DNA from: Verrucomicrobiota bacterium | GTDB lineage: Bacteria > Verrucomicrobiota > Verrucomicrobiia > Limisphaerales > AAA164-E04 | DNA: 64,000 nucleotides | Direction: 5' to 3' | Assembly: GCA_047947115.1 (NCBI GenBank) | Contig: CP170459.1 | Span: 5,376,001 to 5,440,000 of the forward strand | Shown: piece by piece, positions 34,676-52,186 of the stretch | Position numbering within the stretch: position 1 is the stretch's first letter | Layout of the letters: every line of letters begins with the position of its first letter | Made by a program: the position numbers and the translations under genes | Notes under the pieces: generated by a model | Told to the model about the DNA's origin: nothing | The model's input: only the letters and a program-made list of their open reading frames with translations | Database searches by the model: none

Positions 34676-36207
34676 GCCTCTTCTTCAGAATCTGTGGGTA
34701 AATTTAGGTTCGGGTAGTTCACCCATTGTGTGAAAAAGGGCTATTTTAAGCACTTCAAAGCTACGATAGCCGTAGGCTTTTCTGGTAGTCAGATTTATTT
34801 TGCGGTTCAAACCCTCAACAACTCCCGACGAAATAGTCTTTTTGGCCCTGAACCAATTCAGGATCAGCGGCTGATGTTTTCGTAGGCTGCTGGCAAATTT
34901 CTTGATGGGTTCCAGACGTGAGCGCATAGCTCTGGTGCACCACTTGTTCAAATACCACTCAGCCCAATATGGGCTAGTGTAATTCCAAAAGAACTCAAAT
35001 GCTTCTTTGAGCAAAAATGCCCGAACACTTTTCAGATCATACTGGAGGACTTCCTCCAGCTTAATCTTTTGATTGGGCGTGAGGTTCTCACGACGTTTGA
35101 GAAAGCAGTATTTGGTGTGTTTAAGCACTTCCTGGTATCCGTCCTGACGCATCTTACGCGCTTCGACCGCCCTGACTTCATTGATTGCTTTGTTCAGATT
35201 GGCTACGATATGGAAGCGATCCAACACGTGGAGGGCGTGTTCGAGTTTTTCCTTAATCACATTGAGATAAGGTTTCCACATGTCCGAACAAACAAATTGA
35301 ATGGACTCAAGTTGCTTTTGAGTGAGGATCTTAAAAAAATCCCGAAGGGATTGCTCGGTTCTCTCCTTGGTGACGCTTAACAATCGGCGCGTGCCTTGAT
35401 CTATCTGGTAAACCACCGTCAGATACTTTTGCCCCTTTCCAAAATGCACCTCATCAACTCCGATGGCATTAATATCGTCCAAACTCCTGTGCTTCAAGCC
35501 GTATTCAACAATGGAAGCAACGGACCGATACACCGATTGCCAACTGACTTCAAAGGTCTGGGCAACTTCTTTCCATGAAAGTTTCCGAGCCCACTGTGCA
35601 AGGAAGTGTTCCATGACACAGGTTATCCGGCTTTTTCCTTTGGCCCAAGGAACCGATTCGATGACAACACCGTCATTGGGGCAGTTAACTCTTCGCATCC
35701 GGTATTCAAGAAACACCGGCCACCCCCATAAGGGGATGAATCGAAACTTTCGTTTTCCAGGACGATGGTCATAGGTGGAAGCACTACGATTGCACTTTGA
35801 ACATACTGGGCGGCTGTTTTGCCGTGGTTCAACGCTTACGACAATAGCTTCGACTCCTTCAACTTCCTGGAAGCATGCTTGGCGATAGACAAAGGATTTG
35901 AATTTATGGCAACGATTGAGCAAGGTTTTCAACAGCATCGGCACTCTTTGACGAGGTTTGTTTTGGCGACGCCATGTTGAGGAGATTGCCGATGCTTTTC
36001 GAATAAAAATCCTCTGGGTTTTTCTTGGAGAAAAACCACACCACCCGTAGGCCCTCTCGCGTCGTGGAAGTCCAGGAAAACATCATATAAGTGCCGAAGG
36101 CCGACTCCGCGTCAGCGGGGGAGTTATGCTGATGTTTTACTGGACTGGAACAGAGCGATAGGGCATCCCGACGTGCTCAATTTACCCACTCTTTTTTGAG
36201 AAGACCC
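34676..36207 (-). mobile_element. Complete ISL3-family insertion sequence (1532 bp)
   Basis: Imperfect terminal IRs GCCTCTTCTTCAGAATCTGTGGGTAAATTT vs GGGTCTTCTCAAAAAAGAGTGGGTAAATTG (21/30 by hand alignment). 8-bp direct repeat TTTATTTT at 34668-34675 and 36208-36215. Confidence 0.93.
34685..35944 (-). CDS. ISL3-family transposase
   Basis: Zn finger CSKC...RRVNC, VPWA, IGVDE, CSDMWKPY, DRFHI, SGVVEGLNRKI...RKAYGYRSF; frame intact. Confidence 0.95.
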   Translation of the reverse strand: MPMLLKTLLNRCHKFKSFVYRQACFQEVEGVEAIVVSVEPRQNSRPVCSKCNRSASTYDHRPGKRKFRFIPLWGWPVFLEYRMRRVNCPNDGVVIESVPWAKGKSRITCVMEHFLAQWARKLSWKEVAQTFEVSWQSVYRSVASIVEYGLKHRSLDDINAIGVDEVHFGKGQKYLTVVYQIDQGTRRLLSVTKERTEQSLRDFFKILTQKQLESIQFVCSDMWKPYLNVIKEKLEHALHVLDRFHIVANLNKAINEVRAVEARKMRQDGYQEVLKHTKYCFLKRRENLTPNQKIKLEEVLQYDLKSVRAFLLKEAFEFFWNYTSPYWAEWYLNKWCTRAMRSRLEPIKKFASSLRKHQPLILNWFRAKKTISSGVVEGLNRKINLTTRKAYGYRSFEVLKIALFHTMGELPEPKFTHRF

Positions 36208-43162: not shown

Positions 43163-44575
43163 CTACCTTCCCACGCTTCCCAAATCGATTGAGAAATCTT
43201 GGCGGCGATACATGCAGACGCCGTTGATGTCTTCGCAGACATTGTAAAGCGCGTATCCACGAATGGTTTTGTCAGCTTTTTCACCAGTCTGAACGATTTC
43301 AAACTCCACGGATCGAGGTGCGCTGTCGGTAGCTTGTCTTGGATTCGGAAATGTTAACAATGACAAATCGCTGACCCAACCTTCAGTTGGCTGAATCCAG
43401 ACGGTCAGAGGTTCGGCTTCGTTGTTCCAATGCAGGGCTTGAATGGGGTTGGGTTGAAACTTCAGGTGCACTCGGATGGCCTTTTTTTCCTCATAAGTGG
43501 CGGCAACCAGAGTATGCGCCAAACCGATCCCTACCTGCTCATCACGAATGATTCTACCATCGGGATCTGGTTCTGCTGTCCGATTATCGCCGGGGTCGCT
43601 TGGTTGATCCGGGTATGCAAACTCCGCGCCACTGGGTTCAACGGTCAAGGGAATGGGGTGGTCTCCACGTTGGCTGATCTCCTCCCGGGCCTGATGAATC
43701 CAATCGTAAAAGGAATAAGGTTTATCAAGTCGCGGTCCGTATTGTTGGATGCGGCGACGCCAGATGTATTGATTCGGGTCCAGATCGAGAGCTGATTGCC
43801 ACTGGGTGATGGCATGTCGAAACAAGTCCATGTCCTTTTGATCCAGATCAAAAAGCCTTCGAAAAGCGACTCCCTGTCGAAAATGCAACCAGCCGCCTTT
43901 TGAATCCAGCGCAACAGCCTTGGTGTAAGCATCCACACACTGACTCAACGATTCATGCGCCCCCCACAAGAACAAGTGTTCGCCAAAGGCTTCCCATGAA
44001 GCGGCGGTGTTTGATTGTTGAGCAGATGTTTCGAGGTCCTTCGCAGTCTCTGAAATAGTAGAAATGAGAGAAGATTCCGTTTTTTCAAAAGCTACAGGAT
44101 CGCTCATCAAGAAAGCATCAAAGGCTTCCGGTTTCGGATTGATAGCTCGAACCACTCCAGCTTCGTCGATCAGAAGAGTGTAGGGCACAGCGGCCACTTC
44201 AAGCAGATTCAATGCATCCACCGCAACAGGCCAGTCCATTTGCTTCCATTGCATGAACAAGCGACAACGTTCAGGATGCTGTTCCTGGATGATTCCGAGG
44301 ACTTTAATCTTACCGGATTGTCGATAAGGTTCGGTGCGAGCGTGCCACCCGGGCACGTGCTTTCGGCAACCTGCTCACCAGGAAGCAAAAACATGCAACA
44401 CCACCTTCTCCCCGCGGTAATCGGAGATCGATATCGGCTCGCCGTCCTGCAGCGAAGGGAAAGCCTGCTTTGGAAAAGCGACGCCATTTTCGAATCCATG
44501 CGACATAAGGGACAGCATGAAAAAAACACCCAAGGAAATCGAACGAAAAAAACGAGTCTGCTTGAAAATCATCAT
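43163..44575 (-). CDS. Probable selenoprotein: TlpA/redoxin-like domain (UxxC) + TPR-like region + C-terminal Cys-pair domain; UGA at 44375-44377 read as Sec
   Basis: ORFs 44375..44770 and 43163..44356 are in the same frame: ...SISDYRGEKVVLHVFASW-TGA-AGCRKHVPGW...VPYTLLIDEAGVVR. The TGA sits exactly at the first Cys of the WCxxC motif. Confidence 0.85.
44341..44357 (-). promoter_or_regulatory. Candidate bacterial SECIS hairpin
   Basis: mRNA CGUGCC-CGGGU-GGCACG: perfect 6-bp stem with a G-rich loop, starting at +18 after the UGA (loop +24 to +28). Confidence 0.6.
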
Positions 44576-47279: not shown

Positions 47280-48512
47280 ATGAAGCCAATAAAATACCTT
47301 CCAATGGCGTTTCTTTTGATGGGGCTCAACACTGAAGCTCAAATCACCATCACCATCGACGACATGTTCATCGAACCGGGCGAGTATTACCGCGCATATT
47401 CCAATGAACCACCCAACTTTCTTGGCGAACCCAATTCTGTAGTGGTGGCCGGCCTGATGGGTGACGCTGGCGGGGGGAATTATTGGGATTTCAGTCAGGG
47501 TCCCACCGATGATGTTTATCGTTACGACTACCTGGCCCGTGAAACCAACATCGTTTGGCATGATTACCCCGAGGCTACGGTGGCGGAACGCGCCTACCGT
47601 GAGAGTGAACCCGGTGATTACTCCTGGTTACTATATGATCCAGTCCCAGGATTGGGACGTAAATTGTTTGGATTTTGGAAACTGGACAGCCAATACGTTA
47701 ATCCGTCCAATCCGTTTACCAATCCTGTTGTTGATTTTCCGGATGAAATCAACTTCGGCGACAGCTGGACCAACGACATAGAATATCGCAACAGTTACCC
47801 CACCGATTTCGGAGGGTTCGGAGGAGGCATCGGCGGGGGTGATTTGGGAGGTCTGGACGATGTACTGGGCGATCTGGGTGATGCACTGGGCGGACTAGAC
47901 GATCTTCTGGGAGGTGGTGGAGATTCAACCGGAGGAAGCAGCGAAGGCTTGCCCATGATCATCCGGCATGTCCAGTCTTTTGAAGTGGACGCATATGGAT
48001 TTATCGAACTCCCGGATGACCTGGGCATCTTCGAATGCCTTCGAGTCAACTCTCTACTGGAAGTCACCGCCTTGGTGGATATCGAAGGATCCGGATCCTT
48101 TTCCCCTCTCGGCACCCAGAACACACGCGTATATTACTGGCTGGTTCCGGGCAAAGGCATAGCAGCGCAAATGACCTCGCTTGCCAGCGCCGGACCAATC
48201 CCTGATCAATTCAACGAAGCATCCATCTTCCAGCGCATGTTTGAGACCAACAAGCAGCCCCGGAACGCCGGTTGTGCGGAGGCTGAACCGGTGAGCGGTC
48301 TGGACATTGTTTATCAATCCAACCTGGTACGCCTTAAATGGCAAGACGCCGCATGCGCCCAGAATTATCGAGTGCAGTACTCGCTCGGCGGGCTGGAAAC
48401 AGGGGACTGGAAAGATCTTACCAATGGTTCCTACACGGACACTTTCTTTATCGACACGCAGATAAAAGGGAATAATATAAAACTATACAGGGTGCTTTCA
48501 GAACGTAACTGA
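47280..48512 (+). CDS. Secreted hypothetical protein with Gly/Asp low-complexity insert and C-terminal beta-domain
   Basis: Signal peptide (AEA|Q-like), YWDFS, GGFGGGIGGGDLGGLDDVLGDLGDALGGLDDLLGGGG, C-terminal LKW...YRVQYS....W..L......D.......YRV. Confidence 0.8.
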   Translation: MKPIKYLPMAFLLMGLNTEAQITITIDDMFIEPGEYYRAYSNEPPNFLGEPNSVVVAGLMGDAGGGNYWDFSQGPTDDVYRYDYLARETNIVWHDYPEATVAERAYRESEPGDYSWLLYDPVPGLGRKLFGFWKLDSQYVNPSNPFTNPVVDFPDEINFGDSWTNDIEYRNSYPTDFGGFGGGIGGGDLGGLDDVLGDLGDALGGLDDLLGGGGDSTGGSSEGLPMIIRHVQSFEVDAYGFIELPDDLGIFECLRVNSLLEVTALVDIEGSGSFSPLGTQNTRVYYWLVPGKGIAAQMTSLASAGPIPDQFNEASIFQRMFETNKQPRNAGCAEAEPVSGLDIVYQSNLVRLKWQDAACAQNYRVQYSLGGLETGDWKDLTNGSYTDTFFIDTQIKGNNIKLYRVLSERN

Positions 48513-49529: not shown

Positions 49530-50819
49530 ATGGATTTGAACGAACAAATGCGGGATCTGGCAAAGCGCTCCAAAGCGGCTTCGCATCGTCTGACGCAATT
49601 GAATACCGATCAGAAAAACCGCTGCCTGCAAGCTATGGCCGCCGCGCTGCTCGAAAATCGACAAGCTATTCAGGAAGCCAATGCGAAGGATCTGGAGACC
49701 GCCAGGGAAATGAACCTGTCCAGCGCCATGGTGGATCGTTTGGTCTTGAATGATGCACGCATTGAAGGGATGGCACAGGGGCTGAGGGAAATCGCCGCAT
49801 TGCCAGACCCAGTCGGACGAGAGCTGGACCGGAAGGAACGGCCGAACGGCCTTGTGCTACGCAAAGTGGCCACCCCCATCGGAGTGATCGTCATCATTTA
49901 CGAATCCCGCCCCAACGTCACCGCGGACGCTGCGGGGCTTTGTTTCAAATCTGGAAACGCCACCATTCTCAGGGGTGGCAAGGAAGCGATCCACTCGAAT
50001 CAGATCATTGCCCGATTGATGGTGGAAGCAGCCACAAAATGTGATCCAAATTTCCCGCAGGAGGCCATCCAAGTGGTTCCCACCACCGACCGTGCCGCCG
50101 TCCCCGCGCTCCTTTCGCTGACCGACCTGGTGGATCTCTGTATGCCGCGCGGCGGCGAAGGATTGATCCGGGCCGTAGCCGACTGTTCAAAAGTGCCGGT
50201 TATCAAGCATTACAAAGGTGTGTGCCATGTTCATGTGGACAAGGAAGCGGATCTGGATATGGCCGTCCAAATCGCGGTCAACGCCAAGACCCACCGGCCC
50301 GGTGTCTGCAATGCCATGGAAACCTTGTTGGTCGACCGGGCTATTGCTCGGACCTATCTGCCTCTACTTGCTCCGGAATTGGCATCCAAAAAAGTCGCAA
50401 TCAAAGGAGACGAAACGGCGATCGACATACTCAACACCGTCGCAGCAAATCAATCATTGAAACTTTCCCTGGAACCGGCAACCGAAGAGGATTGGCATGC
50501 GGAATATCTGGATCTGATCCTGGCGATTCGGGTGGTGGACGATGTGAACGCCGCCATTGGGCACATCAACCAATACGGTTCGGGCCACTCAGACTGCATT
50601 GTCACCGCCAACCAGGCAACCGCACAACAATTCATGCGGGACGTGGATGCCTCCGCCGTTTACTGGAATGCCTCGACACGATTCACCGACGGAGGGGAAT
50701 TTGGCATGGGTGCAGAGATTGGCATCAGCACCGACAAGGTCGGCGCACGCGGTCCCATGGGATTGGAAGAATTGACCAGTTACAAGTGGCTGTGTTTCGG
50801 CACCGGACAAATCCGTTAG
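49530..50819 (+). CDS. proA: Gamma-glutamyl phosphate reductase
   Basis: PIGVI.IIYESRPNVT, KSGNA.ILRGGKEA, PRGGEGLI, CNAMETLLV, NASTRFTDGGEFGMGAEIGIST.K..ARGPMGL. Confidence 0.97.
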   Translation: MDLNEQMRDLAKRSKAASHRLTQLNTDQKNRCLQAMAAALLENRQAIQEANAKDLETAREMNLSSAMVDRLVLNDARIEGMAQGLREIAALPDPVGRELDRKERPNGLVLRKVATPIGVIVIIYESRPNVTADAAGLCFKSGNATILRGGKEAIHSNQIIARLMVEAATKCDPNFPQEAIQVVPTTDRAAVPALLSLTDLVDLCMPRGGEGLIRAVADCSKVPVIKHYKGVCHVHVDKEADLDMAVQIAVNAKTHRPGVCNAMETLLVDRAIARTYLPLLAPELASKKVAIKGDETAIDILNTVAANQSLKLSLEPATEEDWHAEYLDLILAIRVVDDVNAAIGHINQYGSGHSDCIVTANQATAQQFMRDVDASAVYWNASTRFTDGGEFGMGAEIGISTDKVGARGPMGLEELTSYKWLCFGTGQIR

Positions 50820-50839
50820 CACCCAACCCCATTCACCAT

Positions 50840-52186
50840 TTGAATTCCACCGACATTGAATCAGCGAAAAGCCGGGCGCAACAAGTTCGGAACGCTTTCC
50901 CGGAGAACGGATTGTTCGCGGGACAAACTTGGCGTATCAGTCCCGATCCATTTCCTTTGGATGGCAAGCTAGTCAAGCAGCTGGAAAAACTAGGGCGCGT
51001 GCTGCTGCAGTTTTACCGGGCCCTCAATCTTCTTTACCGGAAAAGTCACGAACAGGCTGCTCCAAGCTGGGTGGCCGAGTGGATGGATGCGGGCAAGCCC
51101 GAGAGATTGACTCAACTCGGACTCAGCCGAACATTCAAACAAGCTCACCCCAAAGTCATTCGTCCCGACATATTGTTGACCGATGATGGCTTTGTGATCA
51201 GCGAACTGGACAGCGTGCCCGGAGGGATTGGTTTAACCGGTTGGTTGAACCAAACCTATGCCGCACTGGCCGACGCTCCTGATTCAAATAGTTCAATTAT
51301 TGGAGGAGCGAAAGGCATGCTGGATGGATTCAACGGCATCTTTGGCAAGGACGCACCGGCGCGAATCGTCGTTTCCGATGAAGCCGATTCCTACCGCCCC
51401 GAAATGGAATGGTTGGCGGATCAAATCAAGGATCGTCCAATCAGTGTGCACGATGGGAATTTTGAAGATTTTAAGGACGGTGACTGGGTGTATCGCTTTT
51501 TCGAGCTGTTCGACCTGGCAAATGTTCCCAATTCAAAGATCATTTTTGAGCGCGCCATTGAAGACCGCCTCCATCTGACCCCTCCTCCGAAAACCACACT
51601 TGAGGAAAAAGCCTCTTTTGCGTTATTACACAACCACAATCTGGAATCATTCTGGCTGCAGCATCTGGGAGGCGGCTTCCTGAAGACCCTGCTCCGGCAT
51701 GTCCCCTATACCTGGATGGTGGATCCGACTCCCCTGCCCCCACAAGGCGCCATCCCCAAACTGGGCTTAACCAACTGGCATCAACTCAAGAACCTGTCCC
51801 AGAAAGATCGTCACCTCATCTTGAAAGTGTCCGGGTTCTCTGAACAAGCCTGGGGAGCAAGGGGGGTATTTCTGGGCAGCGACCTGTCGAGCCAGGACTG
51901 GGGACAGGTCGTGGACACAGCCATCCGCAGTTTTGGCAGACAGAATTATATCCTGCAGGATTACCATAAACCCCGCACCGTCGATGCATCCTACTTCGAT
52001 TTCGACAACGACAAATTGGTCCTCATGAAAGGGCGTGTACGTCTGTGCCCTTACTACTTTGTTCAAGGCGAAGGGGATCAAGCGCGGGCTCAACTCGGAG
52101 GAGTGATGGCAACCATTTGTCCCGCAGACAAGAAAATCATCCACGGCATGTCCGAAGCTATTATTGCTCCCTGCTGCATTGCCTGA
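50840..52186 (+). CDS. Hypothetical protein, probable circularly permuted ATP-grasp/glutathionylspermidine-synthase-like ligase
   Basis: VIRPDILL....ISELDSVPGGIG, YRFFELFD, LEEK, LILKVSG....WGARGV..G, YILQ, RLCPYY. Start set at TTG 50840; the longer ORF-track start overlaps proA. Confidence 0.6.
   Translation: MNSTDIESAKSRAQQVRNAFPENGLFAGQTWRISPDPFPLDGKLVKQLEKLGRVLLQFYRALNLLYRKSHEQAAPSWVAEWMDAGKPERLTQLGLSRTFKQAHPKVIRPDILLTDDGFVISELDSVPGGIGLTGWLNQTYAALADAPDSNSSIIGGAKGMLDGFNGIFGKDAPARIVVSDEADSYRPEMEWLADQIKDRPISVHDGNFEDFKDGDWVYRFFELFDLANVPNSKIIFERAIEDRLHLTPPPKTTLEEKASFALLHNHNLESFWLQHLGGGFLKTLLRHVPYTWMVDPTPLPPQGAIPKLGLTNWHQLKNLSQKDRHLILKVSGFSEQAWGARGVFLGSDLSSQDWGQVVDTAIRSFGRQNYILQDYHKPRTVDASYFDFDNDKLVLMKGRVRLCPYYFVQGEGDQARAQLGGVMATICPADKKIIHGMSEAIIAPCCIA

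Follow-up and report, generated by a model that had tools for sequence, protein, structure and literature searches.

A predicted exported UxxC redoxin with TPR-like and Ig-like domains, very probably a selenoprotein, that databases hold split at its UGA codon

A gene on the minus strand of the 64,000-nucleotide stretch of Verrucomicrobiota DNA analyzed here (hereafter, the window) is interrupted by a single in-frame TGA that almost certainly encodes selenocysteine, and we have little doubt that the family to which it belongs is a real, widespread and systematically mis-split selenoprotein. The evidence for this reading comes from the integrity of the frame, the conservation of the codon across phyla, the presence of the selenocysteine (Sec) machinery in carrier genomes and the covariation of a hairpin downstream of the UGA.

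The reading frame and its in-frame TGA

The gene occupies positions 43163-44575 (minus strand), a frame of 470 codons that closes at the TAG at 43163-43165 and has its sole internal TGA at 44375-44377, corresponding to residue 67 (U67) in FASW-U-AGCR; the orthologues have the same layout. A preliminary description of the region, made from the sequence letters, had proposed a single frame interrupted solely by TGA, and this is what we find; the redoxin segments that it placed on both sides of the codon, the TPR-like stretch and the C-terminal YNVCEDINGVCMY are all present in the translation. Under translation table 11 the frame falls into a 131-amino-acid ORF ending at the TGA and a 397-amino-acid ORF from the GTG at 44356, and the database entries represent the part after the TGA, in keeping with the splitting by standard pipelines that had been anticipated. 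A Pfam AhpC-TSA match (E 8e-12, residues 42-144) crosses the TGA and a Redoxin match covers residues 31-149, both over cut-off; inside these matches, U67 shares its alignment column with the leading Cys of a WCxxC redoxin (L122, codon TGC), which agrees with the original placement of the TGA at the N-terminal Cys of a TlpA-type motif.

The codon is unchanged in contigs of three other runs (X2, X6 and X16, the last with 23 differences elsewhere), and two short contigs of a further run (X15) likewise cover it. Because the contigs of X2, X6 and X16 keep the codon, the TGA is not an assembly error, and the concern that it might be a read error is answered by the same contigs. Nor is the host a code-4/25 organism, since TGA is the commonest stop of the genome (988 of 2004 long stop-to-stop frames). 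The gene was found in 20 runs of marsh, estuary, seawater and aquatic metagenomes from 15 studies; contigs from RNA libraries carry it in six runs, and such contigs give neither the level nor the strand of transcription. The nearest named relative (75%) is a Verrucomicrobiota MAG, and the host would accordingly belong to this phylum. A scan for promoters and terminators returned nothing beyond chance. Next to the gene in this genome lie two others whose translations read like a MATE-type transporter and a pseudouridine synthase.

Three other frames of the window may be recorded here. A 419-amino-acid ORF at 34685-35944 (minus strand) reads, by eye, like an ISL3-family transposase. The frame at 47280-48512 (plus strand) specifies a secreted-looking protein of 410 amino acids with a low-complexity Gly/Asp/Leu insert, GGGDLGGLDDVLGDLG..., which is absent from an orthologue (L028). 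Finally, the first ~200 residues of the ORF at 50222-52186 (plus strand) overlap proA in another frame; the true start is probably near 50820, and the translation suggests an ATP-grasp-like product.

Conservation of the codon, the Sec machinery and the SECIS hairpin

The ortholog set was formed by 80 loci from GTDB genomes (the best 80 of 118) and 20 loci from relatives, of which one is this genome and six are duplicates; three loci lack the U67 column, so that 90 distinct loci were counted. TGA is found at the U67 column in 88 of the 90, spread over eight phyla at a median identity of 47% (these counts include L038, from the unpublished genome G370; without it, 88/90 becomes 87/89, and the selA count of 46/50 given below becomes 45/49). 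One of the two exceptions, L075, has AGA (codon 6106-6108); it also alters a Glu that is otherwise nearly invariant, and P0104, a database protein with 99% identity to it, is annotated as truncated directly after the codon; both facts suggest an error, a mis-assembly or a damaged allele. The other, L078, has a foreign hydrolase-like N-terminus and is an apparent damaged or mis-assembled copy. Separately, L099 carries an in-frame TAG five codons past the TGA and also appears to be damaged or mis-assembled.

A search of the genome for the sel genes, as the preliminary description had proposed, detected selA, selB, selD and tRNA-Sec (selC), all over curated cut-offs: selA and selB are adjacent at 449-453 kb of contig C1, tRNA-Sec is at 2.340 Mb and selD, which has an in-frame TGA of its own, at 3.993 Mb. 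Of the carrier genomes, 50 (from the 80 that supplied loci) were tested for selA, and 46 have it over cut-off, against a background of 18/301 genomes in a phylum sample. In a set of 61 relatives, 19 of the 20 gene carriers have a selA match (one of them partial) and 27 of the 28 genomes devoid of selA are also devoid of the gene, the exception being 85% complete. The C-domain has a match in only 2/301 genomes of the phylum sample; the gene is thus patchy even among selA carriers.

Genes for selA, selB, selD or tRNA-Sec lie near the gene in 11/89 loci, a Prx-like UxxC gene with its own TGA in 17/89 and an AhpD-like CxxU gene in at least 4/89. Kin genomes are not independent, yet the linkage to sel genes and to other selenoproteins recurs in separate clades; the copy in this genome has no such neighbours. 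In L022, L037, L041, L067 and L086 the gene is found within or next to a selA/selB/selD/selC island, some with the AhpD-like CxxU gene, whereas in L109, L111, L112 and L114 selB is upstream and the Prx-like UxxC gene downstream. In a tree built by a quick method the labels cluster and the phyla do not form single clades; transfer is not proven.

The putative SECIS hairpin lies at 44341-44357 (minus strand). Its 6-bp stem, of five G-C pairs and one U-A, begins at the 18th base after the UGA (44357), just as first described, and closes a loop C-G-G-G-U in which bases 1 and 4 pair. Published bSECIS criteria ask for a loop of 3-9 nt, a stem of 4-16 bp, a spacing of 16-37 nt, a G in the first two loop positions and an MFE of -7.5 or lower (in the accessible part of PMC13188914); here the loop has 5 nt with G in second place, the stem 6 bp, the distance from UGA to loop is 23 nt and the energy -11.1 kcal/mol. 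The stability of the single sequence is no better than that of shuffles (z -0.67, +0.21 and -1.28), and we dropped stability by itself as evidence for a SECIS, since shuffles fold as well and covariation alone is informative. In this respect, loop bases 1 and 4 pair in 88/88 distinct sequences (C-G in 60, G-C in 25 and A-U in 3), and the covarying bases are the third positions of Pro75 and Gly/Val/Ala76, i.e. synonymous sites. The structure exceeds 500/500 shuffles, scored as cells paired, and all slid controls; such covariation counts are inflated by related sequences, and the base switches may represent few events. A control independent of shuffling points the same way: third positions are complementary in 80/80 sequences at the site as compared with 189/612 where these dicodons occur in other parts of the genes, and Val74 is GTG in 78/80 against 993/2491 (40%) elsewhere in them. 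The covarying pair is one base tighter than in the bSECIS pattern as printed in PMC13188914, the middle base of the loop is C in 9/88 sequences, outside the G/U consensus, and RNAalifold, which does not model a two-base loop, assigns -2.5 kcal/mol. The loop is built alike, with A-U and G-C variants, in an unrelated selenoprotein family of the same genome. Thus the two signs sought in an alignment of homologues, a conserved TGA and a conserved downstream hairpin, are both present, and none of the outcomes that the preliminary description had named as refuting its proposal was observed.

That the TGA is a real stop, whether in a pseudogene, between two genes, through a sequencing error or under a variant genetic code, is in our estimate highly improbable. 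The AGA of L075, the foreign N-terminus of L078 and the four of the 50 carrier assemblies (completeness not given) in which selA was not found could be read that way; they stand against the same codon in the same column in eight phyla, inside one thioredoxin (Trx) fold, the covariation of the SECIS, the constancy of the codon in independent runs, the use of TGA as a normal stop in this organism and the signs of error or damage in L075 itself.

The family numbers 2455 database proteins at E 1e-3 or better, and 458 clusters (50% identity) at E 1e-30 or better; each of the best 120 database matches listed covers 75-85% of the query. No Cys form and no correctly annotated full-length form was present among the 268 database proteins inspected, and a query centred on the active site gave 33 matches (from 40 candidates of 258-823 amino acids), all to the part after the TGA, with no upstream half and no CxxC. 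The family is stored in databases as truncated 'TPR/hypothetical' proteins devoid of the active site, and, as no Cys orthologue was found, it offers a way to ask when Sec cannot be replaced.

Domains of the read-through protein

A fold model of the full-length protein, with Cys at position 67 (pLDDT 93, pTM 0.92), has three parts: a Trx domain, TPR helices and an Ig-like domain. They are preceded by a predicted cleavable signal peptide (residues 1-27; 44495-44575, minus strand) with a basic N-region, a hydrophobic core and SHG before the mature start, so that cleavage would occur after residue 27. By a heuristic measure, a hydrophobic leader is found in 84/86 loci as compared with 43/470 control windows, in line with the signal-peptide-like N-terminus noted at first; a loose lipobox is found in 17/86 loci and a Tat motif in 0/86.

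Residues 28-160 (44096-44494, minus strand) form a ResA/TlpA-type thioredoxin domain, delimited by the Pfam matches, fold searches and conservation, with U67-A-G-C70 and P131, which we take to be the cis-Pro of the thioredoxin fold. ResA is the top Foldseek match; VIA gives Z 14.9 and rmsd 1.9, with 128 residues aligned. W66, G69, C70, R71, V74, P75, W77 and P131 are invariant in 81/81 sequences, as is the motif U-x-G-C. The TPR-like helical scaffold covers about residues 178-302 (43670-44044, minus strand), as judged from the helices of the model, TPR matches and conservation, and ends in a highly conserved YIWRRRIQQYGP...YDW; the ResA/TlpA fold and the TPR middle that had been suggested from the translation are thus both recovered.

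The C-terminal domain (residues 335-470; 43166-43573, minus strand) is an Ig-like beta-sandwich in its own model (pLDDT 92) and in fold searches, with an HWNNE motif (382-386) and the pair C447-x6-C454. C454 is conserved in 149/149 sequences and C447 in 148/149; the lone lineage that lost a Cys (L066) retains C454, at the position matching C109 of nDsbD. An nDsbD-like C-x5-C pair had been put forward for this domain. The spacing does not agree, being C-x6-C here and in most members, with C-x5-C in 7/269 proteins. The likeness to nDsbD itself stands in part: the domain is Ig-like, has a conserved Cys hairpin and is linked to DsbD_N by remote profile similarity, but it falls below the Pfam cut-off, and nDsbD ties with generic Ig folds. 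In the structure search the best match was BBSome (Z 9.2), followed by the C-terminal domain (CTD) of SOQ1 (7djl, Z 7.9), ScsB-alpha (Z 7.4, rmsd 3.6, 110 residues aligned) and nDsbD (Z 6.6, rmsd 3.8, 102 residues aligned), the last three tied with generic Ig folds, a result that speaks neither for nor against nDsbD; Foldseek was non-specific for this domain and nDsbD superposes poorly (TM ~0.3). In Pfam, the C-domain of this protein has no match, DsbD_N (PF11412) not reaching its cut-off, while DsbD_N matches of E 0.023-1 occur in 8/81 members, and a C-domain profile run against sequences of solved structures gave nothing (best E 0.74). When the family profile was compared with 29 DsbD_N domains of relatives, it aligned over 110 columns at E 1e-3 (probability 22%), against 13 columns at E 0.09 for a reversed control. 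The alignment to the ScsB/DsbD alpha domain is full-length; HWNN falls on HTYWRN, and the first Cys of each pair coincides.

A paralogous C-domain encoded in this genome (L131/L169; G000:C1:4540732-4542087, plus strand) gives 98% to this family and 65% (E 6e-5) to DsbD_N, with both Cys aligned. In the exported product of this gene, an Ig domain of the same WNN...C-x6-C type follows a deiodinase-like Trx fold whose frame contains a TGA (GCLT-U-PPF), and the tail is EF-hand-like; the TGA is found in 7/7 matches among the 61 relatives, and G164 has a Cys version (L135). These sequence comparisons make it probable, though they do not prove, that the C-domain descends remotely from the alpha domain of ScsB/DsbD. 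Among 120 listed of 176 C-domain matches no other architecture was found: these proteins (249-420 amino acids, with TPR or no Pfam domain) look like truncated ORFs of this family.

Possible electron flow and relation to known systems

Our tentative reading, which we put at somewhat below even chances, is that the protein is a two-centre reductase in which the Sec-bearing Trx domain reduces the Cys pair of its own Ig domain, which in turn acts on envelope proteins. In such a scheme, SelB would bind the hairpin and Sec be inserted at U67, a step that we consider nearly certain, and the signal peptide would very probably direct export. A membrane protein of the ScsB/DsbD type would, by precedent, re-reduce the U67-C70 selenenylsulfide; the U67 selenolate would attack the disulfide C447-C454, with C454 as the likeliest point of attack, and both domains would be held by the TPR helices, as by the NHL domain in plant SOQ1. 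More speculatively, the reduced pair might act on some target, repairing a disulfide or an oxidised Cys or Met residue. The preliminary description called the relay self-contained, which overstates it: after export, a reductase still depends on electrons from the membrane. A candidate source is encoded elsewhere in the genome, in a frame of 841 codons that comprises DsbD_N, DsbD_TM and, at the C-terminal end, a CxxC domain; genes of this type occur in 41/41 relatives and are thus not specific. Besides it, the genome has a stand-alone DsbD_N gene (L139; G000:C1:2403902-2404246, plus strand; 299-codon frame), common in the family.

Several findings favour the relay: both redox centres are near-invariant at a median identity of 47%, the C-domain profile aligns with ScsB/DsbD alpha domains, and the paralogous C-domain, which bridges the two, likewise sits behind a Sec-bearing Trx fold. 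SOQ1 domains are among the fold matches of both ends (7djk, Z 12.3; 7djl), a transfer from Trx to CTD is reported for SOQ1 itself, and the NHLRC2 pair is spaced in the same way. The retention of C454 in L066 and the whole-chain pTM of 0.92 also count in its favour. Mean-field coupling analysis (438 rows, Neff 343) tied the TPR helix 229-240 to Trx residues 121-126 and to Y456. Against the relay, the first pair that couples the Trx and C-domains directly does not appear before rank 73, though invariant residues cannot covary, and a ScsB, DsbD or CcdA gene is not recurrent among the neighbour clusters listed; the tie of nDsbD, ScsB-alpha and SOQ1-CTD with unrelated Ig folds and the missing Pfam match of the C-domain weigh on the same side.

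A further point against the relay concerns its direction, since TlpA/CcmG-type domains normally take electrons from alpha domains, as the accessible part of PMC3322552 describes, which favours the reverse. Electrons would then run from a membrane ScsB/DsbD gamma domain or CcdA to the C-domain pair, on to the Sec-Trx domain and to an external substrate, a route we hold to be rather unlikely. The N-domain is indeed of the ResA/TlpA/CcmG kind, an acceptor of alpha-domain electrons; the sequence ScsB to TlpA to PprX has been shown in Caulobacter (PMC3322552, accessible part), and the Prx-like UxxC neighbours, as possible substrates, and the AhpD-like CxxU neighbours would suit it. However, a Se-S couple is generally more reducing than its S-S counterpart. 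In addition, SOQ1, the sole characterised single-chain analogue, runs from Trx to CTD (bioRxiv 2024.11.01.621559, in the part available).

The coupling result could also mean that there is only one centre. The Sec-Trx domain would reduce or isomerise substrates directly, the TPR and Ig domains would select or hold them and C447-C454 would be a structural hairpin disulfide; this is possible, if doubtful. Exported Ig domains often contain hairpin disulfides, the sister family NF041054 combines Trx and TPR in the absence of an Ig domain, and the link to DsbD-alpha is weak. On the other hand, C454 is invariant even where C447 has been lost, the motif is in the register of ScsB/DsbD alpha, and the same domain occurs behind a second Sec-Trx fold. 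As for a peroxidase or detoxifier of the envelope, in which the selenol would meet peroxide, a small electrophile or a metal and the rest of the chain would recycle it, we consider it improbable: AhpC-TSA is the best Pfam domain match and Prx-like and AhpD-like selenoproteins are neighbours, but the top fold matches are disulfide oxidoreductases, with peroxiredoxins lower, and the motif is W-U-x-x-C of the TlpA type rather than the TxxU of peroxiredoxins (PMC13188914, Table 1, as far as accessible). If the two-centre reductase is correct, it would bring selenium chemistry to the repair of envelope proteins in PVC bacteria and Acidobacteria and would give a soluble, single-chain model of electron transfer from Trx to an alpha domain.

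UxxC redoxins are the commonest kind of selenoprotein, and the sister family already has an NCBI model, which tempers the novelty. By sequence, the family is a sister of NCBIfam NF041054 (WAxxUGC_long) and not a member. That model is the best NCBIfam match (residues 33-279, E 1.5e-17), with 63.9 bits against a cut-off of 300 (54.4, 58.0 and 67.6 for three orthologues), and identity to a WASW-U-GC protein of genome G046 is 26% over 258 columns. Both have a ResA-like domain, in which Sec takes the nucleophilic position, and TPR-like helices after it; NF041054 has U-G-C in place of U-x-x-C, whereas here a signal peptide replaces an extra N-terminal segment and a 135-residue Ig domain with the Cys pair is added. 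In G046, two tandem TlpA-like TGA genes (L121; G046:C275:16024-19716), with WGDW-U-GPC and then WASW-U-GC, lie ~4 kb from selA on the same contig.

A 2026 review catalogues 119 selenoprotein families, including generic UxxC redoxins, and among those with a Trx fold are Prx-like thiol:disulfide oxidoreductases (PF00578), Redoxin (PF08534) and thiol-disulfide isomerase-like proteins (cd02966), which share the domain family, the UxxC motif and the in-ORF SECIS with this protein (PMC13188914, Table 1, accessible part). Two Prx-like genes of this genome, with W-U-P-F-C and SECIS-like hairpins, are found on C1 at ~25.2 kb (plus strand; L132) and ~3793.1 kb (minus strand; L133). The accessible part of the catalogue holds no fusion of Trx, TPR and an Ig or DsbD-alpha domain, and 'TPR' occurs 0 times in it, with overlap under a generic name being possible; this is a known catalytic motif in an architecture that the same part does not list, and one for which no Cys orthologue was found. 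BSepDB may hold members under generic names (PMC13326102, as far as accessible). Literature searches for the architecture, with most subscription journals beyond reach, found nothing, and ResA, TlpA, UGC and DsbD were not found in the text of the 2022 Haft preprint.

With ResA, TlpA, CcmG (DsbE) and StoA the N-domain shares the fold (Z 13.7-14.9, rmsd about 2 A), the WxxxC core and the invariant Pro; it differs in identity (16-24%), in Sec and in the two extra domains, and the NCBIfam cut-offs for ResA, TlpA, StoA and DsbE are not reached (13-38 bits against 123-359). ScsB reduces TlpA-type proteins, which in turn reduce a peroxiredoxin (PMC3322552, accessible part). Cytochrome c maturation genes are not recurrent among the neighbour clusters listed. 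The DsbD/ScsB alpha domain (PF11412) resembles the C-domain in its Ig-like sandwich, in the Cys pair of the last hairpin and in an H-x-x-W-x-N-like motif in register; unlike it, this protein is below the Pfam cut-off, has no membrane domain and belongs to a family with mostly C-x6-C, in which the cap-loop Phe was not identified.

The two-centre design has its best precedent in Arabidopsis SOQ1, in which a Trx-like domain and an NHL scaffold precede an nDsbD-like CTD (bioRxiv 2021.03.16.435614, accessible part), and for which transfer from Trx (-274 mV) to CTD (-252 mV) and Msr activity have been measured; the pair C689/C696 of human NHLRC2 has the same C-x6-C spacing (bioRxiv 2024.11.01.621559, accessible part). 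The order of Trx-like domain, repeat scaffold and nDsbD-like C-domain with a Cys pair is shared with both proteins, and SOQ1 is extracytoplasmic (lumen), as predicted here from export. The differences are TPR helices instead of an NHL propeller, Sec instead of Cys and U-A-G-C instead of CCINC, with no sign of orthology. That we are dealing with an obligately Sec-dependent bacterial counterpart of SOQ1/NHLRC2, in which a selenol-Trx domain drives an nDsbD-derived domain with Msr-like repair of oxidised envelope proteins, the WNN...C-x6-C domain being a reusable output module of several Sec-Trx families and no Cys version existing, is unlikely in our view; SOQ1 is the best functional analogue, and this protein would at most work like it.
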